Below are positions 27,783 to 46,150 of a stretch of 64,000 nt of DNA, one piece after another (the stretch's first letter is position 1; each line of letters begins with the position of its first letter). The stretch is from Escherichia coli (GTDB taxonomy: Bacteria > Pseudomonadota > Gammaproteobacteria > Enterobacterales > Enterobacteriaceae). The DNA lies in NCBI RefSeq assembly GCF_009931435.1, contig NZ_CP043415.1; one strand, given 5' to 3'. The notes below the pieces were generated by a model. That model saw only the letters and a list, made by a program, of their open reading frames with translations, had not been told where the DNA came from and did not search any database. A program made the translations under genes and the position numbers.

Positions 27783-28640
27783 TCAGGGGGAAGCTGTGGC
27801 CAGCCGGCTGTAATTACGGTTACGTGACAGAATCATGCGCTCCTTCACACGACGCTCCACTTCGCGTTTTACCGCCTCACGACTGGCAGTGAAACGTCCT
27901 TCCGCGATTTCACGCGTCAGCTGCCGTTTCACCAGGGTGACAATATCCTGACGTTCCCTGTTCGCATCACGACGCGCACGGGCACGTTTTATTCCACGGG
28001 ACTTAAGCTCTGTCTGGTAACTGCGGAAACGCTCACGCACAAAACGCCAGGCTTTCGCTATCAGTTCATCCATACCCAGGGTATCCAGCCCCTGCTTTTT
28101 GCGCTGTCTGTTTTCCCATTCAACACGACTGCGGCGCGCAGCTGCCACTGCATCCTCAGACACATCAAGGGCAGCAAACAGAGCCGGTGTGAACGTGATG
28201 TCGGTCGGAATGTAGCACCCGATAAGCGGGTCATATTCCGTCTGGTAGGTAATCAGTCCCAGCTCTGACAGGAACGTCAGGGCCCGGGTGGCACGGGTGA
28301 TGGAGAGTTTTCCTGCACCGGACTCTGTCGCCAGTCCGCACTCAATGGCCAGCGTGGTGATGGAGCACTGGACGCGGTTGGCCAGCGGATCATAGTGAAA
28401 ACAGAGCCCCTGCAGCAGCGCATCAATGGCCCGGCGACGCAGTACCGGTGGCATGCGCCGACGCAGACCACGCGAACGGGCATGCGCCACATGAATGGCG
28501 AAATCAAAACGGGAGGAGAAGCCCACCGCCTTTTCCATCAGTTTTTCGCAGAACTTCAGCGTTCCGGCACCTTTACGGGGTGTAAACACCGGATTCGGGT
28601 TCTTTACCTGGCGGTAATACGTTTGTTGAAGATCAGTCAC
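27783..28640 (-). CDS. repA1: RepFIIA replication initiator RepA1, GTG start
   Basis: 285 aa from GTG ([40 protein letters not shown]...), near-identical to R100/R1 RepA1. Confidence 0.92.
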
Positions 28641-28707
28641 ACCATCCTGCACTTACAATGCGCAGAAGGAGTGAGCACAGAAAGAAGTCTTGAACTTTTC
28701 CGGGCAT
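28633..28707 (-). CDS. tap: repA leader peptide Tap (translational coupling to repA1)
   Basis: 24-aa [27 protein letters not shown] overlapping the repA1 GTG. Confidence 0.75.
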
Positions 28708-28948: not shown

Positions 28949-29197
28949 TTAGCTAAAAGCACTCTTCTGCTTTATCAGTTCGGCAATCATCTCAGCCTGA
29001 GTAACACCCTCAGCTTCACACATCTCCTGCAATTGCGCTTTTAACGCAGCAGGAATAAACACTCTGAGTTCTTTATGTGTGGCTCGTTTTCTTGCCAGGG
29101 ATGCCTGCTGACGTTCTGCAAGCGTCAGAGGATTACCTTTTCTGTATGCTCGCTTTGTACCTGATGAGGAAGTCACTGCATTTTCTGTCTGCGACAT
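28949..29197 (-). CDS. repA2: replication regulatory protein RepA2 (CopB)
   Basis: 82 aa, [11 protein letters not shown]...; position upstream of copA/repA1. Confidence 0.85.
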
Positions 29198-29480: not shown

Positions 29481-29687
29481 TTACTTCCGTGCTTCGTAGG
29501 CCAGAGTTACCTGCACCACTGTATTTCCCCTGTGAATATTCAGCTCACATAACCGTTCCCTGAATATCAGTGAAAAACACAACACCGTGGCGCACACGGC
29601 GAGCAACCCGATAAGGGCATATTTCGTCATAAACTTTGACCTCTCTGCAAGGAAGAGGCTACAATCAGTAGTGTTAAGGTACTTCAT
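29481..29687 (-). CDS. srnB: Hok/Gef-family type I toxin (SrnB-like)
   Basis: MKYLNTTDCSLFLAERSKFMTKYALIGLLAVCATVLCFSLIFRERLCELNIHRGNTVVQVTLAYEARK; hydrophobic Hok-type core from MTKYALIG. Confidence 0.8.
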   Translation of the reverse strand: MKYLNTTDCSLFLAERSKFMTKYALIGLLAVCATVLCFSLIFRERLCELNIHRGNTVVQVTLAYEARK

Positions 29688-29909
29688 GCAGGCCTCACGA
29701 GTTAATGGATTAACAAGTGGGGTCTTCGCATTTCTGGTACCTGCGTCTTGCCTGAACCAGAAAGGCTCAGACACCCGCCGCGATAATACCACATTCCCTG
29801 TTACTGACCATTCCCTCCATTTCCCGCTTTTCACTACAGAAAAGCCGGGGGCGGGGAAAACTTGCTTTTTCCCGTCCCCGGGGTTGGACAACTGAGCAAC
29901 GCGAAGGCG

Positions 29910-30308
29910 TCAGTGGATTTTTATGATCCTTCCAAACTCTGCTTCCATTTTTTTCATATCCTGTTCTCTTACTGCGACTATCAGTTGTTTTCCTGATTTT
30001 CGTGCCACTCTGGCAAACTGCATGACGGCAGATTCATTATTCAAATCAGACCATCCTGTACAATTAAAAATAATAATATGCTCACTGGCGTTCAGCGCAT
30101 TCCTGATAAAAATAACAGCATAATCATTTAATGTTCTGTCAGAACAACTGTAAATCTGGCTGAAATCATAATACTTATAATCAGTGATATTCAGTTTATT
30201 TAAAAAGCTATCAACTTCAGAAGCTGATTCCCCCACTATAAGAACATTATGATTAGACGATGTGATTAATTCTGATACTGCCTGATAGTTCATTTGTTCA
30301 CCTTTCAT
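29910..30308 (-). CDS. hypothetical protein, AT-rich orphan gene (predicted alpha/beta fold)
   Basis: 132-aa ORF, markedly AT-richer than the flanking genes by inspection; followed by a hairpin plus T-run terminator; no family recognised. Confidence 0.5.
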   Translation of the reverse strand: MKGEQMNYQAVSELITSSNHNVLIVGESASEVDSFLNKLNITDYKYYDFSQIYSCSDRTLNDYAVIFIRNALNASEHIIIFNCTGWSDLNNESAVMQFARVARKSGKQLIVAVREQDMKKMEAEFGRIIKIH

Positions 30309-30395
30309 TAACAGAGAAATAAGTTAATAATGTAATATGCTTCATGCTTTTAAATATCGCATTTCAATGAGAACTCAATAGCCACAGAAATATCA

Positions 30396-30857
30396 TTATT
30401 TCCGTGAGCGCCATACCCAGGGCGGAACAGGAGCGCTGTCTGCCCACAGACCACGTTTCTGCTGTCGTACTTCTCCCTGCAGGACAGGAAGAACAGGATC
30501 GGTGTTGTACTGCTCATAAACCCATGCATCGCCTGCACGGACCATAAACTGATTAACATTCATTCCGTCTGGTGCATAAACCTGCCCGAGAATACGACCA
30601 TAATGATCTCGCTGAAAATATGTGACAGTAACCGTTTTTCCCGCAACCAGAGATTTCATTATTTTTTCAGACCACCGTCCATATTCCTGTTTCTTTTCAG
30701 GTGCATCAATATTAACAAGACGGACACGCACCGGATGCTGAGATAACATGACGTCAATGGTATCGCCATCCAGAACACGCACGACCCGTCCATGAATATC
30801 AGCAGAAAATACCTGACATGAAAAAACAAATAATACCACTGGTATATATTTCTTCAT
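30396..30857 (-). CDS. secreted thermonuclease-family (micrococcal nuclease-like) endonuclease
   Basis: Signal peptide MKKYIPVVLFVFSCQVFSA; SNase motifs VRLVNIDAPE...GR; usual position between repA and finO in F-like plasmids. Confidence 0.8.
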   Translation of the reverse strand: MKKYIPVVLFVFSCQVFSADIHGRVVRVLDGDTIDVMLSQHPVRVRLVNIDAPEKKQEYGRWSEKIMKSLVAGKTVTVTYFQRDHYGRILGQVYAPDGMNVNQFMVRAGDAWVYEQYNTDPVLPVLQGEVRQQKRGLWADSAPVPPWVWRSRK

Positions 30858-31599
30858 TTTACTCTCCGTCACTGATTACTTTTCGTGATTGCATGAATTC
30901 CATGCCGGGATGAATAATGGCTCACGTATCACGCAAAAAATAAACCGTTGAGTTGTGATCAATTCAACAAAATAAGATGAGGTGACTTAATACACATATG
31001 GCTATGTGTTACTAAAAACGCTGGTCAGCCAGCCTGACCAGACACATAAGAAACAACGTCTCATGCATTATTCAGCCTCCTGATACCTGGAGTAACGGAG
31101 GCTGCTTTTTCTGTCACATATTTCCCGTGAAGGCGTTACCGGTTTCCGTGGGTAACATGTGACGGAGATTATATTTTTAATCTCCGTGTATTCATCATAC
31201 CTGCTCTTGCTGACAGGATAACTGTGTTATATCGCAGGCTACCGGATGTGGCGCTGAATATAACGGTCATAGATAAGTCATACATGCCCTGCTCAGGGGA
31301 TTAGCGATAAGACGGACCGGGAGAGTCATCTCCCGGTTTTTCTTTATCCTGCCGCGAATACAGCCCGGCTGTCTGTCAGATTCACCGGATAACCCTACTG
31401 TTATGCATGCCACTGTCACCTCCTGCTTCTTGAAATTCATCACATTTTTTATCCCTGCTGGCTTACCCGGGATGTGAAATATGTTAATTCTGTGATGTCC
31501 GTTTGAAAGACAGGGCAACTCCTTCTTACACCACTATAATAATAATAACGATCTGCCATATAAGTCTGATCCCCCGGAGCTCCGCGACGGGGGTTATTT

Positions 31600-31803
31600 T
31601 TATCGGCACTTACACCGACATGCAGATGCCCTCTTCAGAGCAAAATCCCGCCATGCTTCACAGGGTGCCAGCCGGGCCGCATTCTGCCAGACCTCTGCCG
31701 CTTCCCTGAAAAAGCCACGAATCTCCTGACGGACGGCATGACGCCCCTCGCGCTGATAGCGATAAATACTGCTGTGTTCAGATAATCCACTGGATACAGC
31801 CAT
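31600..31803 (-). CDS. hypothetical small basic protein
   Basis: 67-aa ORF with a strong SD (AGAGGAGGG) 8 nt upstream of the ATG; no recognised family. Confidence 0.3.
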   Translation of the reverse strand: MAVSSGLSEHSSIYRYQREGRHAVRQEIRGFFREAAEVWQNAARLAPCEAWRDFALKRASACRCKCR

Positions 31804-31957
31804 TTTTTATCCCTCCTCTTGACCCGACACCCGGATTATGTCAGAAACATTATGAAACATCCCTGAACGGTTGGATGTTTTTCTCCATCAAAACTCTGGA
31901 TGTCTGTTTTCCCGATTTTTTTCGCTGTTGCCCTCTGTCATACAGAGGGCGCTTTTC

Positions 31958-32515
31958 TTATTCTGCCAGGATCGCCCGCAGCTCATCCTTGATCCGGTTC
32001 TGTCTGCGCACCTTTTCCAGGCGCGCCTGCGCATACTGTTCTTCTTCCTGTGTGATATGTTCTGTCACATAGCCTTCTGTATCATAGCGGCAGGCACCGG
32101 CTTTCATGGCGCCAAGATAGCTTTCTGAACGGGTGATGGCCTTCAGTGCCCTGCGCAGTTTTTTATGAGAGAGCGGGATATTCCGCTGAGACACCTCATC
32201 CAGTAAAACTTCCCGGATACCACAGGCAAGAAGCCGGGGCGTGTTACCGTCAAACAATCCCGGCCACCAGGGTTTCAGAGTGTTCACCGCCTCATCCAGC
32301 GAGGGCAGCGTCAGATAAATGGACAGCGCCTGTCTGGCCTGTGCTTTCTTCGCCGCCAGCTCTGCTTCCCGGGCAGCCTTCTCCGCCAGTTTCTGCTTTT
32401 TCACCTTCCATTTTGGTGGCGTGGTGACATTGATGATGGTTTTCCGGCTGCGGACAGGCGTCTCTCCTTCCGTTTTCCGCTTCAGTGTCAGTACCGGTCG
32501 TTTTTGCTCTGCCAT
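31958..32515 (-). CDS. finO: fertility inhibition protein FinO (RNA chaperone)
   Basis: [50 protein letters not shown]... matches FinO; 185 aa. Confidence 0.92.
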
Positions 32516-32617
32516 GCTTACTCTGACCTTCGTGAAAATATGCCCTGCAGGCCGTTGAAACAACTCATCGTAACAGGAAGTTAATTTCAACGACCTTTAA
32601 CGTATAAATACTGACAA

Positions 32618-33478
32618 TTAAAGATATTGTTTAAACCATTGTGTCTGCACAGCTACTACACGTTCAAAAAACGCGCCCTCATAAATATCATAATGGCATG
32701 CATCAGCTTCCTCGTATAATTCCTTAGTACCAGAAGCAACAGCATCATATAATGCTCTTCCCTGTTCCGGTGGATTAACGCTATCCTGGCCGGCAATAAC
32801 AACCAAAACTGGGCACTGTACTTTGGCTGCGCTCTCTGCCGGTTTATATTGCAACGTTTCCATGACCGTAAGGAAAGGTATTTTTATATCCATTTCGGGA
32901 TGCCGGGCTTTGATTTTCTCGAAGAATACCTTCGATTCATCATCACTTAGTACCCGTGTAACCCCCACAAACATCTCTTTCCCGGTGTTTTTCTTCTTCT
33001 CTGCCATTTTATTCAGCGTGGATAGAAAAGACGCTCTCTCCGATTCATTCATCTCTCCGGTAACCAGAACCTCACCGTCAGCAAAAGCCAGCTGGCTGAC
33101 AATACATTTTACGCGTTGGTCCTGCGCAGCTGCACTGAAGACATGCCCCCCTCCCAGCGATGTTCCCCATAACCCAATACGCTGATTATCAATACATTCC
33201 TGCTTTTCTGCCCAATTGATAACTGAAATAATATCTTCGGTCTGCATTGCAGGAACCAGACGACCTCGTTCTCCATCACTCTCACCGAATCCTCGATAAT
33301 CAAAAGTAATCGTTGCGAATCCTGCTTCTGTGAAGGCATTCGCAAAGCAAGGGAGCAGAACATTCCTGATACCGCAAAACCCATGGCATAAGATAATCAA
33401 AGGATGTTTTATATTTCCTTCAGGAACACGAAATGTCAGGGCAATACCTTCAGAGAGTTTGTGATCCGTAATTTTCAT
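32618..33478 (-). CDS. alpha/beta-hydrolase family protein (R100 orf286-like)
   Basis: 286 aa; nucleophile elbow GTSLGG; located between traX and finO. Confidence 0.75.
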   Translation of the reverse strand: MKITDHKLSEGIALTFRVPEGNIKHPLIILCHGFCGIRNVLLPCFANAFTEAGFATITFDYRGFGESDGERGRLVPAMQTEDIISVINWAEKQECIDNQRIGLWGTSLGGGHVFSAAAQDQRVKCIVSQLAFADGEVLVTGEMNESERASFLSTLNKMAEKKKNTGKEMFVGVTRVLSDDESKVFFEKIKARHPEMDIKIPFLTVMETLQYKPAESAAKVQCPVLVVIAGQDSVNPPEQGRALYDAVASGTKELYEEADACHYDIYEGAFFERVVAVQTQWFKQYL

Positions 33479-33536
33479 AAATATCCTGTGTTATGTTGTT
33501 TATTAATAAGCAGAATCAGCGTCAGTATCATACCAG

Positions 33537-34283
33537 TCACAACGCCAGAATGCCCAGCACAGCCAGATGACAGCCATAGAACGTCGGGAAAAAATCTCCG
33601 GGCCAGAAACGGGGTAATGATTTTCCTACACGCGACACCAGACCAACGGTCAGCACCGTCATCACAAGACCAGCTACAGCCGCCGCATCACTGGAGGCAA
33701 GGTTAAGTGCCGGAATCACGGCCAGCAGGCATGCAACCAGCACCAGACGTTCCGTTCTGTCTTCCGCCCGGTACAGCCGGTGACTGACTGCCAGCATCAG
33801 CAGCCCGGCAATGCCGTAACTGGTGCCGGACAAAGGCCCCCACAGTGCCATCAGGAGAATGGCCGCTGCAGTACGCCACCCACTGCGCGTTTCACACCAT
33901 GTCAGCACCTGTGCCGCCACTGCAAAGGCAAACAGGATATTCCCCTCATACCAGGGAAAGCCGGCCAGATAATATGCGAACTGGGCAATCATCGCCCATC
34001 CCCACAGCCGGTTAATGGCCGGTTGCCGGATATGCGCATGACGGGACAGATTCAGCCCCCACACCAGGGCAAACAGCGGAAAGGCCCCACGCCCAACCAG
34101 AAACATCCACGACTGGTCCAGATGCCGAATGCGGTTTGCATGGTCCAGAACCATCAGCACCAGTGCCACCGTTTTGATGATATCCCGCTGTCCGGGTGAC
34201 CAGACCAGCAACGACTGCAACCAGGTATCGGTCCGGGCAGCCAGTGAATCATTACGTGTTGTGTTCGTGTTATCCGTTGTCAT
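33537..34283 (-). CDS. traX: F-pilin N-acetyltransferase TraX
   Basis: 248-aa polytopic membrane protein; position after traI. Confidence 0.88.
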   Translation of the reverse strand: MTTDNTNTTRNDSLAARTDTWLQSLLVWSPGQRDIIKTVALVLMVLDHANRIRHLDQSWMFLVGRGAFPLFALVWGLNLSRHAHIRQPAINRLWGWAMIAQFAYYLAGFPWYEGNILFAFAVAAQVLTWCETRSGWRTAAAILLMALWGPLSGTSYGIAGLLMLAVSHRLYRAEDRTERLVLVACLLAVIPALNLASSDAAAVAGLVMTVLTVGLVSRVGKSLPRFWPGDFFPTFYGCHLAVLGILAL

Positions 34284-34302
34284 CAGCGTTTATCTTCCTG
34301 TG

Positions 34303-37300
34303 TCAGTCTCCGCCCAGGGTTTTCTCTTTCTGCAGGTCACGAACCATATCCCGCTCCATCTGCTGCAGTCGCTCCTGCAGCAGATTTTCCCGGGCAACCT
34401 CCCGGACCGCTTCCCGCACCCGTTGTGGTTCACGCAGTACACTCTCCGGCAGCGCGGCTTCCCGTTCAGATATGGCAGACCGGTCACGCTCCAGCCCGGC
34501 AATATCCCTGACAGCCTGCTCTGTTTTGCCGTCCGGCAGGTCAGGTTTGTTCTCTGCCATTTTACGGACAATTTCATCCGCACGGCGTTCCGTTTCACGG
34601 CGGATGGCCTCTTCAGCCTGCCGCTGTGCCAGTACCTCTGCCGTGACCGGTTCGCCATTTCCGGCTCCCGGCTGAACGCTGTTGTCCGGGATATCCCCCC
34701 ACACGCGACCACCGGTGATGGTACCGGGATTCCACGGACGACCTTCACCGGCGATTCTTACCACCACACCGCTGTCAGGATTATCACGGGCAATCCGGAC
34801 ACCATCCTGCATATTATCAGCCAGCAGGCTCTCTCCGTTACGGCTGCCCTGCAGGGCCACGAACTGCGCATCCCCGCTGCCTTTCACCCGGCCTTCACCA
34901 CTGAAGCCCCGCAGCCCGTTTCCGTCATCCGTGGTCAGCGGATTCAGCCAGATACCGGCGGACTTGCCGTTACGGTCAAAAGCCGGCAGTGCCACATACG
35001 GTTGCGGATATTTACGTCCCGGAGCAATAAACCGTGCAGGACTGTCTCCCCCGGCCAGCCCCGCCTGACGGAGAACGGCACGGCCTGCCGCCACGTCCCG
35101 CAGCTCCCGCGCCGTACTGAACAACCGCTCTGCATTCATGACCTCCCGGTCCGGTTTCGGCTCAAACACATCGTGGGCAGTTCCTTTCTGTACGGCATTG
35201 TTGATGGCATCCGTCCAGCCCTGACGGTTATCGGTGTACACCTGCACATGCTGCTTCATACGCGACAGGGCCACATAGGCTGACTCAAAGCCGGCCATCT
35301 GTTTCCGGTTACCTTCCGTGCCTTCAAGCGCAATGGCAAAGGTTTCACTTGCCCCCTGCGCACCGTGAGCGGTGATGGCATAGGCCAGGTCAATATGTTG
35401 CTCTGCCTGCTCCTGGCCGGGGCGAATCTCCCGGGTCTGCAGTCCGTCCGACAGCGTGACACTGTCACCGGAAACCGCTGTCACCGTCCAGACGCTGTTG
35501 GCCACATAACCGCGCTCCCGGTCACTCTTCGTGAAGCGCATCCGGTCACCGGTTCCCACCCGGATGGTGTCCGGAGTGTATAGTGTGACGCCTTCAGCCA
35601 CCGCCTCCCGGGGCGAAATCAGCCGCGTGTTACCTTCCGCATCCTCCAGGGTTATCAGCCCGTCATCCTTACTGATACCGGCAATCCGGTGATACACATT
35701 ATCCACCAGGGCAAGTGCGTCCCGATGTGTCTCCCAGGTGGAGAGACGACGCAACTCCCCGTCGCGTATATTCGCTGTGTTCAGGACAGGCACCATGACC
35801 TGCTCTTTTCCCAGCTCACCGGCCTTTTCCAGTGCATCATGAATCATGCTGTTCAGCACGCGCCGGTCCTCATTCAGGTGCGTAACAATCAGCGTCTGCT
35901 CCCGTGCTTCCGGTGTCCTGCCGGTATAGTCGCGGACAATGGCTTCATACAGTGTCATGGGGACATCCGGAAAAGCCTCGCCTTTCAGCATCGCTTTCTG
36001 CTGCGCTTCTGCCAGTTTCGCTTCCTGGCTGTGACTGAACTCCGTCACGGAGTGCTCCGGTGCCCATGCGCCCTCCAGACGTGGCACCTGAGACGGTTTC
36101 ACACTCTCAAGCCCGGACAGTGCCCTTTCCACATCCCGGTTAATCAGGCTGTATACCGCCTCCCGCAGTTCCGGCGTCTGACGCACAATCTCCTTCATGA
36201 TGGCCACATCGGCAGCACTGCGCGTCTGCTGGAGACGGAAAGGCTGACCGGGCGCGATGGCCTGCAGCTGGTCCGTGTCACCGCTGGCCACGGCACGACC
36301 ACCACCGGCCGCAATCAGGGCGTATGCCCGTGCCATGTCGGTATTGCCCACCATTGAGCTCTCATCGAGCAGGAACAGCGTGTTGCTGAAATCCGGCGTT
36401 TCTCCGCTGCGCTGCTGCAGCTGCGTGTCATGCAGAAAGGACGCCAGTGTCTGTGCATCCACGCCTGCGCTGCGCATCTCCCCGACCGCACGGTGCGTGG
36501 GCCCCAGCCCAACGACACGGGGACGCTCACTCTCCGGCAGCATGTTCACGGCTGACATCACCGCCCGGAACTGTGTGGTCTTACCCACCCCGGCATACCC
36601 CTGCACCACCGTGAAACGGTCGGACGTTTCCAGTATCATGCGGGTGGCGGCACGCTGTCCTGATGTCAGTTTCTCCATGAGTTCGCCAGGTACTCTCTCC
36701 ATCAGCGGCGTGACCGCCTCCTTACCCTCGAGAATATGGCGAAGAATGCTCTTTTCTGCCTCATACGACGCACGGGAAACCAGCAGGTCTGTGCCATAGC
36801 CTTTAGCCACATCCACATGCAGTAAATCACCCCGTTTTATCTGCGCATCGATTTCCCGCCCCAGTTCAGTAAAACTGGTTCCTTCTGCAGCAAACGACTT
36901 TGCCTCTGTCAGCAGGTCCACATGGCTGAAGGCCAGGTTTTTACTTTCCACCACCGGAAGGGCCAGATGAATGGCCTGCTGTGCCGGCGTGTGAAGTGCG
37001 GACTTCTGATGACTGATAGCCGTTTCCAGCGATGTCTCACCGGCACGCGCCTTTATCTGCTCAGAAACCACCGTAAAGGAGGGATGGCGGGCAAGTTTTT
37101 CCGCAGTACGGGTTTCATCCAGTGAGGAATACAGCCGGACATCACGACCGCTGCGGGCCAGACCGTTCAGGGTGGCGTTGTCCATTGCCATCTGTGTGAC
37201 GGAGGCAAAAACCTTCGCACTGTCGCTGACGGAATGCCCGGGCGTTTCCACCCAGCCGTTCTCCAGCTTCAGTGCCGTGAACGGTGAATCAGCCACAGGC

Positions 37301-39573
37301 AGGGTGGCCGGTTCAGCCCGCCCCGGCACAACAACCGTCATCGCATCTTCACTGACGGATGCCACCTGCAGGCGGTCACCGCCGGAGACGCGGAGTCCGG
37401 GAATTTTCCCTGTCACCCTCAGTCGCTCGCCGTCTGCCACCGGCATTTTTTCCGGCCGGAACAGCGACCAGCTGCTGTCCAGGGAGGAAATACGCACCAC
37501 CTGCGTTTCACCCTGCGCATCCCGCAGGGTCAGGCTGTGACTCTGCGCCGTCACCCGGTCGATAACATAGCGGTCATGACTGCGTGTCTCCGGGTTCCAC
37601 TGCTCCATCACCATCCCCGGACGGTACATATCCCGCAGATAACGGCTCCGGCTGTCCAGCCAGACCGGTGACAGGGCGGTCATGGTTACCTCCGGGTGTC
37701 CGAGCACGCCCTGTGTTTTCAGCTCACTGCGAATGGCCTGTGTCAGTATGGCCTGTTCCCGTACCCCGCTGACCTGTGCCACGCTCTCTTCTCCGGCTTT
37801 CACGCTGACCGCAAAATCTCCTGCCAGCCGGGCATAGCGGACATTACGGTCCGGTTCACTGATGATGGTGGCCGGTCGCTGTTCTCCCCCCTGCCAGCGA
37901 TATGTGTTCACCCCGGCATCCTTCATGGCCATCAGTGCACTGCCTGTACCGGTTCGCTGCCCGCTGTCGGTTATCAGGACCTGTACGTTATGACGTGCAG
38001 CACCGTCCAGCAGGGTTAACGTCTCTTTCAGGGAGAGTTTTTCGCCCTGGTCAACGATAACAGTACTGCCCGGCGTGAAGGCCATGCCTTCCAGCAGCTG
38101 ACGACGTCCGGTTATCAGCTCACCGGACAACCGTTCATCCTGCTTCAGGTTCATCTGCGAGCGACGGTCAGCAGCGATAATCTGCACCTCCCGCCCCTGC
38201 TCCCGGGCCATCATGACCAGTTCAGCCACCCGCTCACGCTGCCCGGCTGCACCGCCCTGCCCGGACACAATGGCCAGCGACGGACGGTCCTGTGCCAGAA
38301 CACTGACCGCATCGCTGTAACCAGCCGTCCGGGGGACACTTTTCTCCGGATGTACGGTCACCCGGTTCTGTTTCATGATGTCACGACTGAGTGCCCGGAC
38401 TGACAGCTCATCGAGCACATGAATCCCGGACGTGAACAGCCCCTTCTCACGATCGAGGGGGATAAGCTGCTCACGGCTGATGGCCTCATCGATACCGGCG
38501 CGTGCCCGTTCAATCACACCATTTTCCGGCGGCAGTATGCCGACCGTTCTGGCCAGCACGTCCGTGTACGTAAACTGCACTTTTCGTTCACTTAATCCGG
38601 CAATGGCCTGTGTCACCGCCTGCTGCACATCCGGCCCCTCCTGTGAAACAGCCCCGGGCGCCTGCGTGCGGGTCTCCGCACGCTGATCCGCCGCGTCACG
38701 ATATGCCCGGATGTCGAACCCGGTTTCCTTCAGCGTCTGCATCCATTCAGCCATTCTGACTTCAGGATCGACGTGCTGTTTGGATTTTCGCGTATCCAGT
38801 GCCGCCACATCCCGGGATTTCAGCGAGGCATCTTCCCCGACGGCCTCCCGGATTGCCTGTGAGCGTCCGGAAAAGGCCTCCACCGGTACGCCCGGCATTT
38901 CCCACATACCGTGCTTACCCACCACTTCGGTTTCATAGCCCAGCGCCTCAACCTGCTCTTTCAGTTTTTCCCGGTAGAGCCTGCCAAAGGCAATCTGATT
39001 AGCGTACACATTCTCAATGAACCCCGTTTTCCCCACTTTGTCACTGCTCAGTGTCTTCCATTCGCCGTTATGCTGCGTGACATTAGCCACCACCGCATGC
39101 GTGTGTAACTGTGGTTCCTGATCGCGACTGGTGTCGTGGTTAAACAGTGCCATCACCAGATTACCGGTCAGCACCGTTTCTGACTGTCCGTCCGTCATCA
39201 CCCGTGTGGAGGCCAGCGCCTCCACCTGACGAACAGCAAAGTCCACGGCCTGGTTATGTGCATCAATCAGGCGCTTATCGCCACCTAACATGGCCATCAT
39301 GGAGACACTTTTGGGGGCGGAGAAGGTCAGGTCGTAGCCGGGACGATGCCTGTTACTGCCATCCTGCATGCGGCTTAGATCCGCTCCGTCCGGCAGCCTT
39401 CCCTCCAGAAGACGGGTAAAAACATCCTTATCGACACTGCCCTGCAGTCCCAGCTGTTCAGCCCCCCTGCCGGCCCAGCGTTCTCCCATGCTGCCCAGCA
39501 CATAGTAATTATCCTTGTCGGTATAATAGTTCCCGGCACTGCCGGCCGATCTGACCTGCGCGATACTCATCAT
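34303..39573 (-). CDS. traI: relaxase/helicase TraI
   Basis: 1756 aa; [27 protein letters not shown] relaxase N-terminus; helicase Walker A QGYAGVGKTT. Confidence 0.95.
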   Translation of the reverse strand: MMSIAQVRSAGSAGNYYTDKDNYYVLGSMGERWAGRGAEQLGLQGSVDKDVFTRLLEGRLPDGADLSRMQDGSNRHRPGYDLTFSAPKSVSMMAMLGGDKRLIDAHNQAVDFAVRQVEALASTRVMTDGQSETVLTGNLVMALFNHDTSRDQEPQLHTHAVVANVTQHNGEWKTLSSDKVGKTGFIENVYANQIAFGRLYREKLKEQVEALGYETEVVGKHGMWEMPGVPVEAFSGRSQAIREAVGEDASLKSRDVAALDTRKSKQHVDPEVRMAEWMQTLKETGFDIRAYRDAADQRAETRTQAPGAVSQEGPDVQQAVTQAIAGLSERKVQFTYTDVLARTVGILPPENGVIERARAGIDEAISREQLIPLDREKGLFTSGIHVLDELSVRALSRDIMKQNRVTVHPEKSVPRTAGYSDAVSVLAQDRPSLAIVSGQGGAAGQRERVAELVMMAREQGREVQIIAADRRSQMNLKQDERLSGELITGRRQLLEGMAFTPGSTVIVDQGEKLSLKETLTLLDGAARHNVQVLITDSGQRTGTGSALMAMKDAGVNTYRWQGGEQRPATIISEPDRNVRYARLAGDFAVSVKAGEESVAQVSGVREQAILTQAIRSELKTQGVLGHPEVTMTALSPVWLDSRSRYLRDMYRPGMVMEQWNPETRSHDRYVIDRVTAQSHSLTLRDAQGETQVVRISSLDSSWSLFRPEKMPVADGERLRVTGKIPGLRVSGGDRLQVASVSEDAMTVVVPGRAEPATLPVADSPFTALKLENGWVETPGHSVSDSAKVFASVTQMAMDNATLNGLARSGRDVRLYSSLDETRTAEKLARHPSFTVVSEQIKARAGETSLETAISHQKSALHTPAQQAIHLALPVVESKNLAFSHVDLLTEAKSFAAEGTSFTELGREIDAQIKRGDLLHVDVAKGYGTDLLVSRASYEAEKSILRHILEGKEAVTPLMERVPGELMEKLTSGQRAATRMILETSDRFTVVQGYAGVGKTTQFRAVMSAVNMLPESERPRVVGLGPTHRAVGEMRSAGVDAQTLASFLHDTQLQQRSGETPDFSNTLFLLDESSMVGNTDMARAYALIAAGGGRAVASGDTDQLQAIAPGQPFRLQQTRSAADVAIMKEIVRQTPELREAVYSLINRDVERALSGLESVKPSQVPRLEGAWAPEHSVTEFSHSQEAKLAEAQQKAMLKGEAFPDVPMTLYEAIVRDYTGRTPEAREQTLIVTHLNEDRRVLNSMIHDALEKAGELGKEQVMVPVLNTANIRDGELRRLSTWETHRDALALVDNVYHRIAGISKDDGLITLEDAEGNTRLISPREAVAEGVTLYTPDTIRVGTGDRMRFTKSDRERGYVANSVWTVTAVSGDSVTLSDGLQTREIRPGQEQAEQHIDLAYAITAHGAQGASETFAIALEGTEGNRKQMAGFESAYVALSRMKQHVQVYTDNRQGWTDAINNAVQKGTAHDVFEPKPDREVMNAERLFSTARELRDVAAGRAVLRQAGLAGGDSPARFIAPGRKYPQPYVALPAFDRNGKSAGIWLNPLTTDDGNGLRGFSGEGRVKGSGDAQFVALQGSRNGESLLADNMQDGVRIARDNPDSGVVVRIAGEGRPWNPGTITGGRVWGDIPDNSVQPGAGNGEPVTAEVLAQRQAEEAIRRETERRADEIVRKMAENKPDLPDGKTEQAVRDIAGLERDRSAISEREAALPESVLREPQRVREAVREVARENLLQERLQQMERDMVRDLQKEKTLGGD

Positions 39574-41771
39574 CAGAAATCATCTCCCGGCTCAACATCC
39601 TCCCCGCGCTCCCGGTGCACATTAATGTTCACCTCTTCACGACGCTGCATCTGCTGCTGGATGTCCGGATGATTTTCCTGTTGCCATGCCTCATAAGCGG
39701 CCATATCCACCACTTCACCGGATTCACTGATCCCGGGTGGCAGTTGCTGTTCCATCTCTTCTTCCGGTTTCATTTTCAGCTCCTGCTCGATCCCCCCTGC
39801 CGGAACATTCACACCTGAATCTGACTTCTTATCGTTGATGGCAGGAGACATCGGCTGTTGCGGCTGTTGCGGCTGTTGCGGCTGTTGCGGCTGTTGCGGC
39901 TGTTGCGGCTGTTCAGCCTGAGTCACGTCTTCTCCGGAAACAACTTCCGGCACATCCGGTTCGAAGAGGCTGGCCATCTGACGACCTTCTGCTTCCCTTG
40001 CGGCAAGTACGGCGCTCAGGCGGTTCTCCATTTCCGGGTTGATGTCACGCGGAATAAACTCAGGGGCAACCTTCGGACGTGCCTGATATTTCAGTGAGAG
40101 TTTTACTGCCGGATACGGTCCGGGCAGGGTGACATAACAGGTCAAATCCGGCAGAGACTGAATGTCGGAATAACTGACCAGCGTCTGGCGCTCCATATCC
40201 TTACCGGTCGATACCCCGTCACGTACCGGATCAGCACCGTAGGAGTACTGCTCGCTGGCTTTCAGGTGCTCTTTCTCACCAATCTCACCGGCAGCGAACT
40301 CTGCAATCTTATGGCTGGGAGAACGGAAAAAGGCACGGGTGTTCATGACGTCAAACAGCGTGGCAGCCGCTTTCTCACCGTAGATATCTTCCAGCTGGGC
40401 ATAGGACTGGATACCAAACACATAACAGCCACCGAACTTACGGGCTTCCGGCAGGATCTCCACCAGGTCCGGCAGTTTGTGTAACGTGGGTAGCTCATCA
40501 CAGAAAAACCACACACGACGGTTACGGTTTTCTCCCATTGCCAGCAGACCACGAATGGCAATGGACAGCCACATGGAGATCACCGGCTTCAGGGAGGCAT
40601 GGGTGTCGGCATTCGACGAGATAAACAGCCAGCCGTTTTTCTGATCTTCCCGGACACCCCGCATCCAGTCACGGATGGTAAAAGACTCACCGTTATGCTC
40701 AATCCCCTGCAGGTAACGGATGGCTTTCACGTAGTTGGTCAGCACAGCACGGATGGAAATCGCCGTTTTCTCAATTTTCTCTTCCACCAGGTTGGCCGCC
40801 GGTGAATTACGCAGGAAGGTACGCAGTTTTTCGATTTTGATGGAAAGCAGTGTGTCCACCAGTTTGCTGTAGCTACGGTTGGGGTCATTACGCATCAGGT
40901 ACGCCGCTTCCGCAAAAATGGTACGTCCTGAACCCTGCCAGAACGGGTCCTCTTTTGTGCCCATCGGGATCAGGGTATTTGCCGTATTATCAAAATCCGG
41001 CTGTGTCAGACACTCCTTCCATAAATCCCAGGCGGCACAGCGGGCATCCAGCGGATTCAGGATTTTATCGATGGAGGGATCATAGTAACTTTTAACAAAT
41101 TCCCCCGAACGGTCATAAATCACCACCATATCACCGCGCTGACGGGCGTAGTTGGCCAGACGACGGATAACTTCCGACTTACCGGCCCCGACCGTGCCGT
41201 GCAGACAGAAGTTCTGGATTTCGGAATCCCGGATAATCGGCAGGTCTCCAATCCGGATATCGGAGTCCTTGCCGTCTTTTTTCAGCATCCGGGCAACGTC
41301 TTTCGGATTGTCTGTCAGCTGACGACCACCTGTGGCTTCATTTTCGCTCTGTTGTTTACCCTGACGCCCCAGAATCCAGGAGACAACAAAGAAGGTAATC
41401 AGGCAAATAACCAGTGCCACAACAGCAGCCAGCACGAAGGCGGACCATAACTGCTCACTGCACCAGATCATATATTTGTCATGCAGTACCTGAGCAGCGT
41501 TCATGCGGAAGGTTTTACCGTAATACTGGATCTCATAGACCGGCTGGGATTTGATTAAATCCCGCATGCCTTCCAGCGTGGTACACCACCAGTAAATACA
41601 GCCGTTCACAAACGTCTGCCAGCTTATTTTTATCCATAAAACCAGACCAACGAGTATCCAGAAAAAAATAAACAGGCAGTAAAGCATGATATTGGCGATC
41701 TGGCTGAACATGCGGATACGCATGGACGCAATCTGACCGCCCTGGGTCATATCCTTTGCGTTAAAACTCAT
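39573..41771 (-). CDS. traD: type IV coupling protein TraD
   Basis: 732 aa; Walker [10 protein letters not shown]-terminal (QQP)n tract; stop overlaps the traI start by 1 nt. Confidence 0.95.
39851..39915 (-). repeat. tandem 9-bp coding repeat in traD encoding (QQP)n
   Basis: CGGCTGTTG repeated ~6.5 times on the plus strand (CAGCAGCCG on the coding strand). Confidence 0.9.
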
Positions 41772-41989
41772 GATGATATTCCGAAGAAAAAAAGTCAGTC
41801 GGACTGATTATTAATGATGAAAAGATTAATAACCGTTAAATTCCGGCTTCGCCGGCAACACTTCACGGTCGCACAAAGAATTTGCACAACCGCTCAGTGT
41901 TTTCATATTTATTTCGGAAACGCCGGGGAGAAATAAAATTTATTTTATTTCTTTCCGGGGTTGGACAACGAGCAAAGCGAGGCGTCAGT

Positions 41990-42012
41990 CAGGAGGCCGG
42001 TCAGACCAGCCT
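41990..42012 (-). terminator. hairpin after traT (candidate terminator)
   Basis: GGAGGCcggtcagaccaGCCTCC directly 3' of the traT stop, followed by a second hairpin. Confidence 0.4.
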
Positions 42013-42023
42013 CCGGAAGATAA

Positions 42024-42758
42024 TCAGAGAATATTTGCGATTGATTTGGCCAGCTGGTCTTCGAGAACAGGCTTCGCCTCTTCAAATTTCAGGTTAACCT
42101 TGTTCGCATTTGAGACCACACGGGTCTGGTATTTATGCTGGTTACCTGTTTCTGTACTGGTCTGAATTTTCGCACCTGATGTGCCCTGACGCAGGGCGGC
42201 AACATTATCCGTTGTCACCGTTGCCTTAGTACGCTCTGCAATCTGCACATCCGTGATCATGGTATAGTTCACATCTTCCACCATCGCATCTGCAGCCATA
42301 CCCACCAGACCGGCAGCAAGGCCCACACCGAGTGTGGCACCGGCAGAATTGGAATTATATCCGGTGATACCGGCACCTAACGCTGCACCAACTGCTGCGC
42401 CTTCATAACCACGGTTCAGCCATCCCTGAGACTCCCGCAGATCCATCTTATCGGCCTTCAGCACATTCGCCTGAATCCAGTAGTAGGCTTTATCCGGAGA
42501 AGTCACCACCTGATACCCTTTTGCTTTCACAGCATCAGCAATTTTGCCCTGCAGCCCACTCATGTCTTTATCAGACGTGTTTTTGATCTGCAGAAATACC
42601 GTGCGTTCGCTGGCGGGTTCAAGCCAGATGGTCTCACTCATCTGAGTCTTCACCTCAAGGTTACGCTTCTTGATTGCTGTGCTCATCGCACCACACCCTG
42701 AAAGGGCCAGAGTGGAACTGACCAGTGCAACCATCATTAGTTTTTTTGTTTTCATCAT
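42024..42758 (-). CDS. traT: surface exclusion / serum-resistance lipoprotein TraT
   Basis: Lipobox LALSGCGA; near-identical to F TraT. Confidence 0.93.
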
Positions 42759-43333: not shown

Positions 43334-46150
43334 TTATTTTTTATGCTGGTAACTCTTTGCTTTCTCTAAAAGCTCTTTCGGACTATCAGCACCAGGTATT
43401 CTTTCCTGAGCCAGCTTTTCTTCATTATATTTATTATTCTGAGTTAATGCTTCTGTTTTATGATGATTTTGTAGTTCAGAATACTGCCCTTTTACAATAT
43501 TTTCCTCGCCTCGGATGCTGTTCTGAGTATCTCCGATATTACCTCGATATTCTGTGACCATATTATCAACCTGATGTTTTACATCATTACGGATATTACT
43601 GTCCTGCGTTCTTTGCTCAATAATGGCCTGATGTCCCTGATGATCAGCAATAATATCCTGGCTGCCACCACCCGAAGGTACGCTCTCCATTCCTTTACCT
43701 ATATCTCTACGGGATTCACGCCAGGTGTTATCAACACCAGGCTGTACCTGTTCCTGCACAAAAGACCACGCCATAGCCCGACGGCGTTCTGCAATCTCCG
43801 GCGAACTGGTATTTGTCAGAATAGCTTCAACATCCTGCGGTGCGTTTTTCATCACATACTGTGCAAACTGTTGCGACAGATCTTCACTCATCTGCCCACT
43901 CATACTCTCAGTACGGGATGCCATTTCAGCATATTCATGGCTGCGGGTCATATTCGTCGTGTACTGGTCGTAACTCTGTTTCGCTGAATTCAGGGCTGCA
44001 GACAACTGATCCACACGGGAATCAGCATTATTGTCAGTATGGCTGCCGGATTCACTGACTTTGCGGCTGGTAAAGTAATCGCTGGCTTCTTTAAAGTCTT
44101 GTGTAGCTCTGGCATCGATATCATGACGAGCATCATGGCTGGCCCGTGAACCACTACTGGCTTCATGTGAGTCAAGATCACTGCCATCAATGCTTGCCTT
44201 AGCTCCGGCCTGGAGACCAACCCCTCCACCGTTACCCAATACACTTATGCCTAAATGCCCTTTAGCATAAGCATCACCGTAAAGGCCAAGCGACGCATTT
44301 GTACTTCTCGAGGCCAGTTCTCTCGTCGCCTGCTCATTACTGATATTATGCGCCTTCGCATAGCTTTCCACTGCACTGCGCATACGGCTGGCCATCATGG
44401 AGTCCTGAGCACTCATCGTGCTGTCAGCACCACCAGTGACAGAGTCACTGCTCCCCCGGTTAGAGCCAAACTGACTGAGTGTGTTCCAGGCACTGGCAAT
44501 ACTGCTGCTGAAACCATGCAGGGCACTTTCGGCTCTGTTCGACGCCTCCCGGGCCATTTCCTGTTGTGCCGCTGCAATCTGACGCGTTGCATTGATACCG
44601 ACCGGTAACCGGGACATCGCTCCGCTTGCATCCATCACCATATTACCGTCACGGGTCTGTGTGGCGGTTGCGCCACTGCCGGTCTGGTACATCATCTGAC
44701 CAAACGACGTGGTGCTGTTGGTGCTCCAGCTGAAGCCGTTCACGTTTTCCGTCTGCATGTTGCCGTAGGAGTAATTACCGTCAACCACACTGCCTGCTGC
44801 ACTGGCCGTTGGACTGATAGATGAAGAGGCGAAGTGGCTGTACACGCTGGAAAAACCTGCGCCAAGGCCTTTTACCATCATCCATGACAACGGGGGGATC
44901 ATGGCTGAAAGATACCCGGCAGTGGAGGCCAGGTCAGAGTATTTCAGCTGTATCTGAGAGAGTTCAGACAACACGACCGGCGCACCATTCTGTTTCGCAT
45001 AGAATGTCATGGCACTGTTCAGAATGGCATACAACAACGGCCAGGTCTGCAGCCACATCAGGGCAAACACATACCCCTTTAATACAGACAATGTCAGCTT
45101 GTTAAAGACAGCCGCCAGTATCAGGAGCGGGAATATACCAATGGCAATCCCCGTCAGGATAGTCTGGACCATCGGCAGGTTTCGCATAGTTACATGACCA
45201 ATGGAGACATGTGCCAGACGTTGTTTCTCCATCGATGACGTGGTGGCCAGACTTACCAGGCTGGCGGTGTCACCGTTACGGGCTGCATTACTGGTGATAC
45301 CCTCTTTCAGGGCATTCATGGTGACGTTCTGGCGCATAATCTGGCTGGCAGACTGACTGGAGCCGTAGAAATAACTGTAACTGTCACTGACCAGTTGTCT
45401 GAATAACAGGTCCGGGTCCGGTCTGCCGCCAAATATCTGCTGCACATAATAATGCCAGGTCTTGCCTCCCGTCTTTGTATCGAGATTCAGCCTGTCTTTC
45501 AGCGTGACCGACGCATCCTTACAAGTTATGAAATTATTATTGTTGTCATAAACGCCCCGTAGCGGGCTGGGGCGGGAAAAAATCAGCGTGTAGGGGTCAG
45601 CGGAGGCCATCAGGTCTTCCAGCGTGTATTTATGATTCAGGTAAATATCACCCAGCACGCAGTTCTGGACGTAGTCCTGGAACAGATTGATGATTTCCGG
45701 ATTCCGGGACAGGAAATCGGTGCTTTTCACAATCAGATTCGCCCCGAACAGCATCCCCGTTTTGCTGTAGGTGACGCTGTCCGGTTGCGTGAAGATCATC
45801 TCGTAACTGGCCACCATTGCATGCCCGATACGGGTCGTCAGTGAAAGTGGCATCGCCAGACCGACCGGCACATTATCCACCCGGTGAACTTTGACCAGGT
45901 CACTGTTATCAATAATCTGCACCGATGTGCGGACATTAACCAGCAGGCTGATAAGCACAAACACGGCCACCCAGCCCAGCAAATCCATCACGTTGTGCCG
46001 CTGTACCCACATTACGGCCACCGCGAGAACAGACAATGTGAGCGCAATTTTTTCAATGGAATCCCACGTCCAGGTTCCCATAAAGGCGGCAATGGCGTTC
46101 AGGTTATTCCGCAACCACTCACCACCGGCAATCACATAAACTTCATTCAC
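43334..46150 (-). CDS. traG: mating-pair stabilisation protein TraG
   Basis: 938 aa, N-terminal membrane domain; F order. Confidence 0.92.
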   Translation of the reverse strand: MNEVYVIAGGEWLRNNLNAIAAFMGTWTWDSIEKIALTLSVLAVAVMWVQRHNVMDLLGWVAVFVLISLLVNVRTSVQIIDNSDLVKVHRVDNVPVGLAMPLSLTTRIGHAMVASYEMIFTQPDSVTYSKTGMLFGANLIVKSTDFLSRNPEIINLFQDYVQNCVLGDIYLNHKYTLEDLMASADPYTLIFSRPSPLRGVYDNNNNFITCKDASVTLKDRLNLDTKTGGKTWHYYVQQIFGGRPDPDLLFRQLVSDSYSYFYGSSQSASQIMRQNVTMNALKEGITSNAARNGDTASLVSLATTSSMEKQRLAHVSIGHVTMRNLPMVQTILTGIAIGIFPLLILAAVFNKLTLSVLKGYVFALMWLQTWPLLYAILNSAMTFYAKQNGAPVVLSELSQIQLKYSDLASTAGYLSAMIPPLSWMMVKGLGAGFSSVYSHFASSSISPTASAAGSVVDGNYSYGNMQTENVNGFSWSTNSTTSFGQMMYQTGSGATATQTRDGNMVMDASGAMSRLPVGINATRQIAAAQQEMAREASNRAESALHGFSSSIASAWNTLSQFGSNRGSSDSVTGGADSTMSAQDSMMASRMRSAVESYAKAHNISNEQATRELASRSTNASLGLYGDAYAKGHLGISVLGNGGGVGLQAGAKASIDGSDLDSHEASSGSRASHDARHDIDARATQDFKEASDYFTSRKVSESGSHTDNNADSRVDQLSAALNSAKQSYDQYTTNMTRSHEYAEMASRTESMSGQMSEDLSQQFAQYVMKNAPQDVEAILTNTSSPEIAERRRAMAWSFVQEQVQPGVDNTWRESRRDIGKGMESVPSGGGSQDIIADHQGHQAIIEQRTQDSNIRNDVKHQVDNMVTEYRGNIGDTQNSIRGEENIVKGQYSELQNHHKTEALTQNNKYNEEKLAQERIPGADSPKELLEKAKSYQHKK

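Follow-up and report, generated by a model that had tools for sequence, protein, structure and literature searches.

How two unrelated minus-strand genes, a 132-aa orphan open reading frame (ORF) and traT, came to be followed by the same motif is the question raised by this locus, since a shared 3' sequence was taken by the initial annotation as a sign either of a mobile terminator cassette or of a recombination footprint that brought in the orphan gene. The window referred to below is the whole stretch of DNA that was analyzed, 64,000 nt in length, and the features under discussion are collected in Table 1.

Results

Extent of the repeat

The two motifs (29876-29915 and 41954-41992) were described as ~90% identical, and pairwise alignment bears this out: apart from two 1-nt indels, they agree at 35 of the 38 bases aligned, and the common string reads CCGGGGTTGGACAAC(T)GAGCAA(C/A)GCG(A)AGGCGTCAGT. 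A chance repeat was ruled out, as the expected number of degenerate 25-mer matches in the window is 0.00. The size of ~36 bp, however, proved too small, because the homologous unit also takes in a hairpin to the left of the motif, which is itself the 3' part of a ~76-bp non-coding unit (hereafter, the module) made up of a hairpin with a 21-bp stem, closed by AAC/GTT, and a 28-nt tail with the consensus GGACAAC(T)GAGCAnnGCG(A)AnGCGTCAG. Searched with a covariance model of the family, the window yields two full copies, no more. When the module was used in an Rfam covariance search, no family matched at the gathering score, and the best hit (E = 0.11) was to an unrelated family; a literature search covering the motif, the traT terminator, 3' UTR small RNAs, and ssi sites in F returned no description of it.

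Because the similarity is non-coding, a C-terminal coding segment inherited by both genes was ruled out as its source; the only overlap is with a stop codon, at copy 1 alone. The initial annotation had placed both motifs across a gene's stop and beside a GC-rich hairpin. At copy 1 both statements are correct, the TGA of the orphan falling within the module tail and the module hairpin being GC-rich, but copy 2 is different: the traT stop (42024-42026) lies 35 nt past the module end with a separate hairpin (hairpin A) between them, the upper stem of the module is AT-rich, and the GC-rich hairpin beside traT is an unrelated structure, outside the repeat.

Table 1. Features of the window around the two module copies.
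Feature	Position	Strand	Basis or remark
copB (RepB-RCR_reg), IncFII replicon regulator	28949-29197	-	Pfam PF10723, 1.8e-34
hok-family toxin locus leader	29620-29776	-	Rfam RF01794 ('sok' model), 99 bits
Module copy 1, IncFII-junction type	29838-29913	+	Covariance model, 93.5 bits
Copy 1, 3 leading bases			
Copy 1, 5' arm	29841-29861		
Copy 1, loop	29862-29864		
Copy 1, 3' arm	29865-29885		
Copy 1, tail GGACAACTGAGCAACGCGAAGGCGTCAG	29886-29913	+	
132-aa orphan ORF	29910-30308	-	ORF list; stop (TCA 29910-29912) inside module tail
traD, downstream of copy 2	39573-41771	-	ORF list; annotated in L019 and L020
H', inverted module relative upstream of traD	41840-41904	-	Covariance model with filters off, 22.2 bits, E 7e-7
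Module copy 2, traT-traD spacer type	41916-41988	+	Covariance model, 75 bits
Copy 2, 5' arm	41919-41939		
Copy 2, loop TT	41940-41941		
Copy 2, 3' arm	41942-41962		
Copy 2, tail GGACAACGAGCAAAGCGAGGCGTCAG	41963-41988	+	
Hairpin A, GGAGGCCGG-TCAGA-CCAGCCTCC on +	41992-42014	-	Directly 3' of traT; separate from repeat
traT, upstream of copy 2	42024-42758	-	ORF list; traT annotation in matching plasmids

Distribution and flanks

A search across F-like plasmids, as the initial annotation had advised, shows a discrete, cassette-like module beside many unrelated flanks. It is carried by thousands of IncF plasmids, at three canonical positions and beside many different genes, and over half of complete E. 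coli genomes have it, with a median of 2 places per genome; only 28 of 5143 places are chromosomal. Among 100,044 species genomes scanned there were only 10 matches, all in F-like plasmid contigs, some of them evidently contaminants. Both edges are sharp to the single nucleotide, and the flank types, at least 20 on the left and 18 on the right, combine freely. The module is independent of its neighbors in other respects also. It is not part of every traT cassette, being absent from the traT/traD spacers of IncFIIK and Serratia plasmids (in the Serratia plasmid L142, none was seen downstream of traT). Nor does it belong to the hok locus, whose leader comes next after copy 1 in the gene sense (a Hok/Gef CDS is annotated in matching plasmids): the srnB/hok locus of F itself has no module in its upstream spacer, and modules occur without hok, in which case (L001 context, by alignment) they lie directly upstream of copB.

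These comparisons bear on the origin of the orphan gene. Copy 2 is ordinary F backbone, identical at 100% to the traT-traD spacer of plasmid F (NC_002483, 89545-89803). The module did not arrive with the orphan, as the same module occupies the same finO-distal/IncFII-replicon junction in thousands of plasmids that have no orphan, and a near-full-length homologue of the orphan (L144) has no module. What does hold is the notion of a recombination footprint, in that the right edge of the module is a recombination junction. The orphan ORF, which matches no Pfam family, has homologues of 143-151 aa that reach 14-24 aa further than it does; it is truncated at the junction and uses the TGA of the module as its stop. 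A 188-aa gene in L146 likewise ends in the module TGA, and in L001 the TAG stop of a DUF2726 gene directly abuts the module. The module behaves as a fixed island where flanking genes get exchanged or truncated, whatever its function, and marks an exact breakpoint that explains the patchwork of the IncF finO-to-replicon segment as well as several truncated "orphan" ORFs there that borrow its stop codon.

Such behavior is what one would expect of a recombination site or the remnant of a small mobile element, with a recombinase or transposase acting at the module ends. The edges are nucleotide-sharp in more than 12 independent right flanks, with left flanks combining freely, unrelated genes end in or abut module stop codons, alignment shows the hok locus present or absent exactly at the left edge, the hairpin is precisely deleted in one natural variant, and the module has a 5-bp terminal inverted repeat (ACGCC...GGCGT). 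We nevertheless consider this explanation very unlikely. The cassette-like half of the proposed mobile terminator cassette stands, but nothing points to mobility of the module itself, with 1-2 copies per plasmid, almost none on chromosomes, and no target-site duplication at the 15 flank pairs compared, and with so short an inverted repeat the module does not resemble a MITE or IS end. No recombinase is consistently nearby, strand-specific pairing (see below) would be left unexplained, and sharp edges can also come from selection keeping a functional island while its flanks turn over. Integron attC sites and REP/BIME elements are also palindromes of variable sequence and conserved structure that directly follow the stops of unrelated genes and show cassette-like shuffling of neighbors, yet they occur as arrays or by the hundreds, in contrast to the 1-2 modules per replicon, and no integrase or RAYT transposase lies near the module (no integron integrase was found in any module context examined). 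Of the attC core RYYYAAC...GTTRRRY, only GTTGGAC/GTCCAAC fits, on one side only, and it is not invariant, reading CCTGGAC in pSLT. The F-type nic site, with the TraI recognition sequence GTGGGGTGT|GGTGCTTT, has no match within 3 mismatches in the window, the tail sharing only GGGGT-TGG with it; likenesses of the tail to the Tn3 inverted repeat, the IS50 end, Ter sites, dif/cer, and F nic were short matches by eye, at chance level, and were discarded.

Pairing and strand bias

The hairpin varies in sequence between copies while its pairing is kept, both sides having changed in 12 of the 21 pairs. In the alignment of the module family, 90.5% of cells are paired on the plus strand vs. 83.7% on the minus strand; none of 500 shuffles reached the observed plus-strand value, and slid registers pair only 41-61%. 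The wobble pairs are distributed still more unevenly, with G·U in 31 cells at 7 pair positions on the plus strand vs. 1 cell on the minus strand, and the fixed wobble pairs of the module are all G·T on plus. Among 137 modules there are 81 G·T and 7 A·C (both read on plus), the A·C only in variants seen once each, and the commonest alleles, including that of F, show 2-3 A·C mismatches on the gene-sense strand. Predicted folding energies agree, at -38 kcal/mol on plus vs. -27.8 on minus for copy 1 and -28.7 vs. -19.3 for copy 2. Folding is 9-13 kcal/mol more favorable on the plus strand, which is antisense to every gene neighboring the module.

Two neighboring hairpins bear on whether mutation alone could produce this asymmetry. 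Hairpin A, which serves as an internal control for strand bias, has in all major variants a non-Watson-Crick pair that is A·C on plus and G·U on the gene-sense minus strand. H' consists of a long hairpin (AACACTGAGCGGTTGTGCAAA-TTC-TTTGTGCGACCGTGAAGTGTT) and then a mini hairpin (CCGGCGAAGCCGG), is conserved in pSLT, IncFIIK, and Serratia, and folds at -33.8 in the gene sense vs. -18.6 antisense. Because these structures, only 10-60 nt away, carry the opposite bias, a regional mutation bias behind the G·T asymmetry was ruled out; covariation, wobble, and the opposite bias of the neighbors together indicate a strand-specific secondary structure kept by selection. A small hairpin may also form in the module tail (ACGC-GAAG-GCGT); it shows no covariation and parallels the mini hairpin after H'.

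The strand on which pairing is kept makes the terminator nature of the module doubtful, although a leaky terminator or insulator on gene-sense (minus-strand) RNA is a possibility that we rate as somewhat unlikely rather than remote. The hairpin and its GUUUC would end or attenuate traT or finO-distal transcripts, so that the promoters of traD, hok, and copB-repA would be shielded and some transcription could still reach traD and traI. Every module follows the 3' end of a gene and keeps one orientation with respect to transcription, its hairpin still forms on the minus strand (-19 to -28 kcal/mol, z about -2 to -2.7) despite the A·C interruptions in the commonest alleles, CGTTTC belongs to the conserved unit in F-like copies, and a deliberate weakening of the stem could be accounted for by the read-through that traD needs. 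Jalajakumari et al. (1987, J Mol Biol 198:1) reportedly observed rho-independent termination downstream of F traT. The spacer of F is the same and has a hairpin 3' of traT, but that activity may belong to any of its three or four hairpins, and the module hairpin, selected on the antisense strand, lacks a real U-tract. Wobble on the wrong strand (7 pair positions vs. 1) and A·C mismatches in the sense RNA of the commonest alleles are difficult to reconcile with a terminator, and so is the "U-tract" itself, which is just 3-4 U in CGUUUC (an intrinsic terminator should have at least 5 U of 8 after the stem), has its GUU paired with AAC in the stem, and is absent from L090 and the tiny-plasmid relatives described below; divergent members have no conserved U-tract after the hairpin, whichever way it is read. 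A terminator scan did not call the site, the IncFIIK spacer has a separate canonical terminator (GCCGCCTTCGGCGG and then a T-run), and conservation of 28 nt on the 5' side of the stem would not be expected of a terminator. If the module is only a leaky terminator, it is ordinary backbone anatomy.

A plus-strand RNA would have the wobble on the correct strand, and the module might thus be a stabilizing hairpin or processing site of transcripts antisense to traT or the orphan, comparable to antisense RNAs catalogued previously for F-like tra regions. Rfam recognizes several plus-strand antisense RNAs in the window (AS-traI, AS-traG, AS-pc02, and CopA), and a Sok-type plus-strand promoter lies ~170 nt to the left of copy 1. 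This explanation seems very unlikely to us: no promoter is common to the different left flanks, no plus-strand U-tract follows the hairpin, the module matches no Rfam family, the tiny plasmids have neither a gene nor a promoter annotated on that strand, and H' would need the opposite logic. A candidate plus-strand promoter before copy 2 (TTGCAC-16-CATATT), noticed by eye, was rejected as it falls below the scan threshold and does not occur in other contexts.

Discussion

A candidate single-strand DNA signal

We tentatively propose, from sequence comparisons, that the module is a strand-specific single-strand-DNA signal of the priming-site (ssi) type on the plus strand; of the other explanations, the terminator is the main rival. 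The module would act as single-stranded DNA, its folded plus strand forming a landmark at which host priming or replication-restart proteins would start complementary-strand synthesis. Under this proposal the strand bias would reflect folding as DNA rather than as antisense RNA, and the activity of the module would presumably be priming. F-like plasmids transfer the template strand of the tra genes. The tra genes of the window, from traY to traD, all lie on the minus strand, directed away from an oriT situated past position 64000, and from the gene order leading away from oriT (traY...traT...traD...finO) together with what is known of F transfer, we infer that the plus strand, as the template strand of these genes, is the one transferred in conjugation. 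The module would accordingly lie on the strand that becomes single-stranded.

Several observations do not sit easily with a priming site. In F-like contexts the module always comes directly after the 3' end of a gene and ahead of the next promoter, in one orientation to transcription, a placement that also fits a terminator or insulator. H' folds on the non-transferred strand, and the hairpin family is therefore not exclusive to the transferred strand. A relative lies in E. coli chromosomes beside cdiA remnants, none was detected in ColE1 with either the covariance model or nhmmer, and the highly conserved tail is not accounted for.

Known plasmid ssi signals, such as the n'-type primosome sites rriA and rriB of ColE1 and the G4-type G-site of R1/IncFII, resemble the module in being non-coding, strand-specific hairpins portable between replicons; they act only while one given strand is single-stranded, as the module would. 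The candidate differs from them in having no detectable homology to ColE1 or, for its hairpin, to the G-site, in its 28-nt conserved tail, and in its position late in the transferred strand rather than in the leading region or beside an origin. The Frpo single-strand-DNA promoters of the F leading region are likewise transferred-strand hairpins, used in the recipient before the second strand is made, but they are ~300 nt long with -35 and -10 boxes in the stem, whereas the module, far from the leading region, has a 21-bp stem of freely varying sequence without conserved hexamers. To our knowledge, conversion of the ~100-kb entering strand from single strand to duplex has been described only for the leading region, with its Frpo promoters. 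If the priming proposal is true, the module would offer a concrete, deletable target for discontinuous complementary-strand synthesis during conjugation in the late-entering part of the strand.

Relatives in tiny plasmids

Hairpins related to that of the module occur in rolling-circle plasmids of 1.4-2 kb with two unrelated Rep families (Rep_1 and an ORF2-G2P type). There the hairpin lies beside a G-site-like element, on the other strand from it, and adjoins a ColE1-bom-like segment, an arrangement reminiscent of ssi signals; the G-site-like element is a neighbor of the hairpin and not its homologue. One model for small mobilizable rolling-circle plasmids expects a single-strand origin on each strand (PMC8152469). 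The pC194-type nick site CTTGATA, sought in the tiny plasmids as a means of fixing the displaced strand, was not found, and their oriT-like resemblance hints only weakly at which strand is transferred.

It is conceivable, though in our view doubtful, that F-like plasmids and many tiny rolling-circle or mobilizable plasmids share an as yet unnamed, portable, strand-specific family of two-hairpin signals, which on the transferred strand, far outside the leading region, would be start sites for the complementary strand in the recipient. Since such signals would have to be preserved whole, they would also turn into fixed islands at which accessory genes are exchanged and cut short. The G-site-like hairpin has matches ~700 bp downstream of IncFII repA in pSLT and at 21145-21201 of the window. 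Its folding is better on the strand expected for G-site action, which suggests that the wobble test reports the working DNA strand.

Results and Discussion

The window belongs to an F-like conjugative plasmid whose relevant genes all lie on the - strand (see the table); oriT must lie past 64000, outside the window. The initial annotation had reported a similar motif of ∼36 bp 3′ of both traT and a 132-aa orphan ORF, and its positions (29876-29915 and 41954-41992) and similarity held up: 35 of 38 aligned bases are identical, with two single-base indels and a chance expectation of zero, and the two sites align as CCGGGGTTGGACAAC(T)GAGCAA(C/A)GCG(A)AGGCGTCAGT. Alignment with other plasmids places the motif in a discrete module of ∼76 bp, which opens with G(A/G)A, continues with a hairpin whose 21-bp stem is closed by AAC/GTT, and finishes with a 28-nt tail that has GTCAG at its end. 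With a covariance model trained on 21 variants, exactly two complete copies were detected in the window; their stems differ in sequence, with base pairing preserved. The proposed stop-codon overlap applies to the orphan (TCA at 29910-29912) and not to traT, the stop of which lies 35 nt past the end of copy 2, with hairpin A intervening. A weak match inside traG, ∼120 nt from the AS-traG RNA, comprises a short GC hairpin and, after it, a tail-like ...AGGGGTCAG, and may be due to chance.

Features of the window around the module and its relatives
Feature	Position	Strand	Remark
traY to traB	60-63.7 kb	-	
Weak module match	45550-45600	+	18 bits
AS-traG RNA	45346-45431		Rfam
traT	42024-42758	-	
Hairpin A	41992-42014		
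Module copy 2	41916-41988		75 bits
H′	41840-41904	-	22 bits
traD	39573-41771	-	
9-bp tandem array	39843-39929		
traI	34303-39573	-	
finO	31958-32590	-	FinO_N + ProQ domains
Thermonuclease gene	30396-30872	-	
132-aa orphan	29910-30308	-	
Module copy 1	29838-29913		93.5 bits
Sok-type promoter	29636-29665	+	predicted
hok-family locus	29620-29776	-	Rfam 'sok' model match
copB	28949-29197	-	
IncFII repA	27783-28652	-	
G-site-like hairpin	21145-21201	+	
Direct repeat	14540-14839 / 20117-20416		
Group II intron domain	14453-14539	+	Rfam match

The module is firmly part of the widespread IncF backbone. Copy 2 and its flanks are 100% identical to the traT-traD spacer of plasmid F (NC_002483) and are present in about 4,000 PLSDB plasmids; more than 5,000 plasmids match the copy 1 region, with homology ending at 29913-29915, and only 238 of these records also carry the orphan. 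The module occurs in 3,032 of 5,426 complete E. coli genomes at a median of two places per genome, 5,115 of the 5,143 places being on plasmids, and in a species-level scan with a single genome for each species, every hit was on an F-like plasmid contig. Its three canonical contexts, identical in orientation relative to genes, are traT-hairpin A-module-traD (F, R100-type, pSLT and some Klebsiella plasmids), finO-distal accessory genes-module-hok or copB-repA (IncFII plasmids), and traX-finO-DsbA-like gene-module-PLD nuclease-copB-repA, in a plasmid that we take from its gene content to be IncFIIK-like. No module was found in the IncFIIK traT-traD spacer, downstream of traT in Serratia plasmid L142, in Serratia plasmid L018 (which also lacks traT), or upstream of hok in F itself.

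Among 137 module copies from a metagenome scan, representing about 45 sequence variants, at least 20 left and at least 18 right flank types combine freely, and both edges are sharp to the single nucleotide. Plasmids with and without the hok locus diverge precisely at the left edge; at the right edge, unrelated genes terminate in or against the module, the TGA within its CTGAC serving as stop for the orphan and a 188-aa gene, and the TAG stops of a DUF2726 gene and an 86-aa gene abutting it. The orphan matches no Pfam family and has only about 30 relatives. Because relatives of 143-151 aa extend 14-24 residues beyond its end, and because a near-full-length homologue (comparison sequence L144) is joined straight to the hok flank without a module, the orphan was evidently fused to a module already in place, losing its end at the junction, and did not bring the module in. 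The module is firmly a fixed point for exchange and truncation of neighboring genes; that it is itself a recombination site we consider improbable. Rearrangements were also seen within and beside it: in L016 (2500-2534) the left hairpin arm carries an IS66-family insertion, in L015 traD is interrupted by an IS66-like element on that same side of the module, and in one metagenome variant short TTTC repeats bound a precise deletion of the hairpin.

On the + strand, 90.5% of cells pair, with both-sided changes at 12 of 21 pairs; none of 500 shuffles reached the observed values, and slid registers pair at 41-61%. Pairing on the - strand extends to only 83.7% of cells, and the non-Watson-Crick pairs are one-sided, with G·U at 7 pair positions (31 cells) on + versus one cell on -. 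Over all variants there are 81 G·T(+) and 7 A·C(+) cases, the latter confined to variants each seen once. Series of alleles (for example GG/CC, GG/TT, AA/TT) have G·T on the + strand as their intermediate, and this GG/TT form is the allele of F itself; folding is better on the + strand by 9-13 kcal/mol. Regional mutation bias was rejected as the source of this asymmetry because two neighboring elements are biased oppositely: hairpin A, a few bases from copy 2, wobbles on the - strand, and H′ folds at -33.8 kcal/mol on - versus -18.6 on +. The module is firmly established as real, discrete, structure-constrained and strand-asymmetric. Hairpin A directly follows the traT stop, has G·U on the mRNA strand in all variants, and is probably a 3′ stabilizer or terminator stem of traT mRNA.

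During F transfer the nicked strand moves 5′ to 3′ and the tra region enters last. Since the tra genes are directed away from oriT, the transferred strand is the tra template strand, the + strand of the window; it is on this strand, antisense to all neighboring genes, that the module hairpin folds. The best fit, which we favor tentatively, is a putative strand-specific single-strand-DNA signal of the ssi (single-strand initiation) kind on that strand; an antisense-RNA element seems a poor prospect. A role as a leaky terminator or insulator, which we rank as the main rival and somewhat less likely, would accord with the position of the module 3′ of genes, its single orientation relative to transcription, and terminator activity reportedly described after traT in 1987. 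Wobble on the wrong strand, the missing U-tract and the conserved tail disfavor a classical terminator.

Relatives of the module also occur outside F. Comparison sequence L090 carries a divergent module downstream of a cdiA-CT/cdiI locus, with the tail shared and a stem that, although almost wholly different, remains palindromic over 21 bp flanked by AAC and GTT. Next to its close copy in E. coli chromosomes is an island that carries an integrase and a CHC2-primase-like gene; in E. coli C11 (L153, 5026-5098), the L090-type module has a degraded cdiA locus on one side and on the other an island whose products are an HTH protein, a primase-like protein of 1,031 aa with a CHC2 zinc finger, and a XerC-like integrase. 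The L090 hairpin alone matches 1.4-2 kb rolling-circle plasmids with Rep proteins of two unrelated families (Rep_1 and ORF2-G2P/GPA-type), in all of which the strand antisense to rep gives it the more stable fold, by 5-10 kcal/mol. A second hairpin beside it matches a site ∼700 bp downstream of IncFII repA in pSLT, by position presumably the R1-type G-site, a primase-dependent priming signal. For this element the better fold is on the strand expected of a functioning G-site, which suggests that the wobble test reveals which DNA strand is active. It also matches a hairpin in the window about 6.6 kb from repA, suggesting an insertion between replicon and priming site. Read along the strand on which the tiny-plasmid hairpin folds, its other side is occupied by a segment with homology to the ColE1 bom region. 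Three E. coli plasmids of 1.4-2 kb (L148, L149 and L150; Rep_1 and ORF2-G2P type) have in common one non-coding cassette, in which this hairpin is combined with the G-site-like hairpin and an inverted repeat resembling ColE1 bom; 1,268 PLSDB plasmids contain parts of the cassette. For small mobilizable rolling-circle plasmids, a published model expects one single-strand origin per strand (PMC8152469).

H′ begins 70-130 nt before traD on the gene-sense side and combines a long imperfect hairpin with a mini hairpin after it, CCGGCGAAGCCGG, that parallels ACGC-GAAG-GCGT of the module tail. F, pSLT, IncFIIK and a Serratia plasmid all retain it; its ends in IncFIIK, AACGGTGAAC...GTGAGGCGTT, match the tiny-plasmid hairpin ends exactly, and only in IncFIIK does a T-run follow the mini hairpin. 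By its score against the covariance model on the - strand, H′ is of the same family as the module, inverted, so that the traT-traD spacer of F holds two family units on opposite strands.

Other features were noted in the window. Within the 3′ end of traD, seven tandem copies of a 9-bp unit (CGGCTGTTG, read antisense to traD) give the C-terminal region of TraD a short peptide repeat. The 'sok' match lies on the strand of the hok mRNA leader, not that of the Sok antisense RNA, and a Sok-type promoter is predicted on the + strand. A 300-nt direct repeat (89% identical, 5.6 kb apart) adjoins the group II intron match, with more repeats at 18.8 and 20.6 kb, which suggests two related intron or IS copies.
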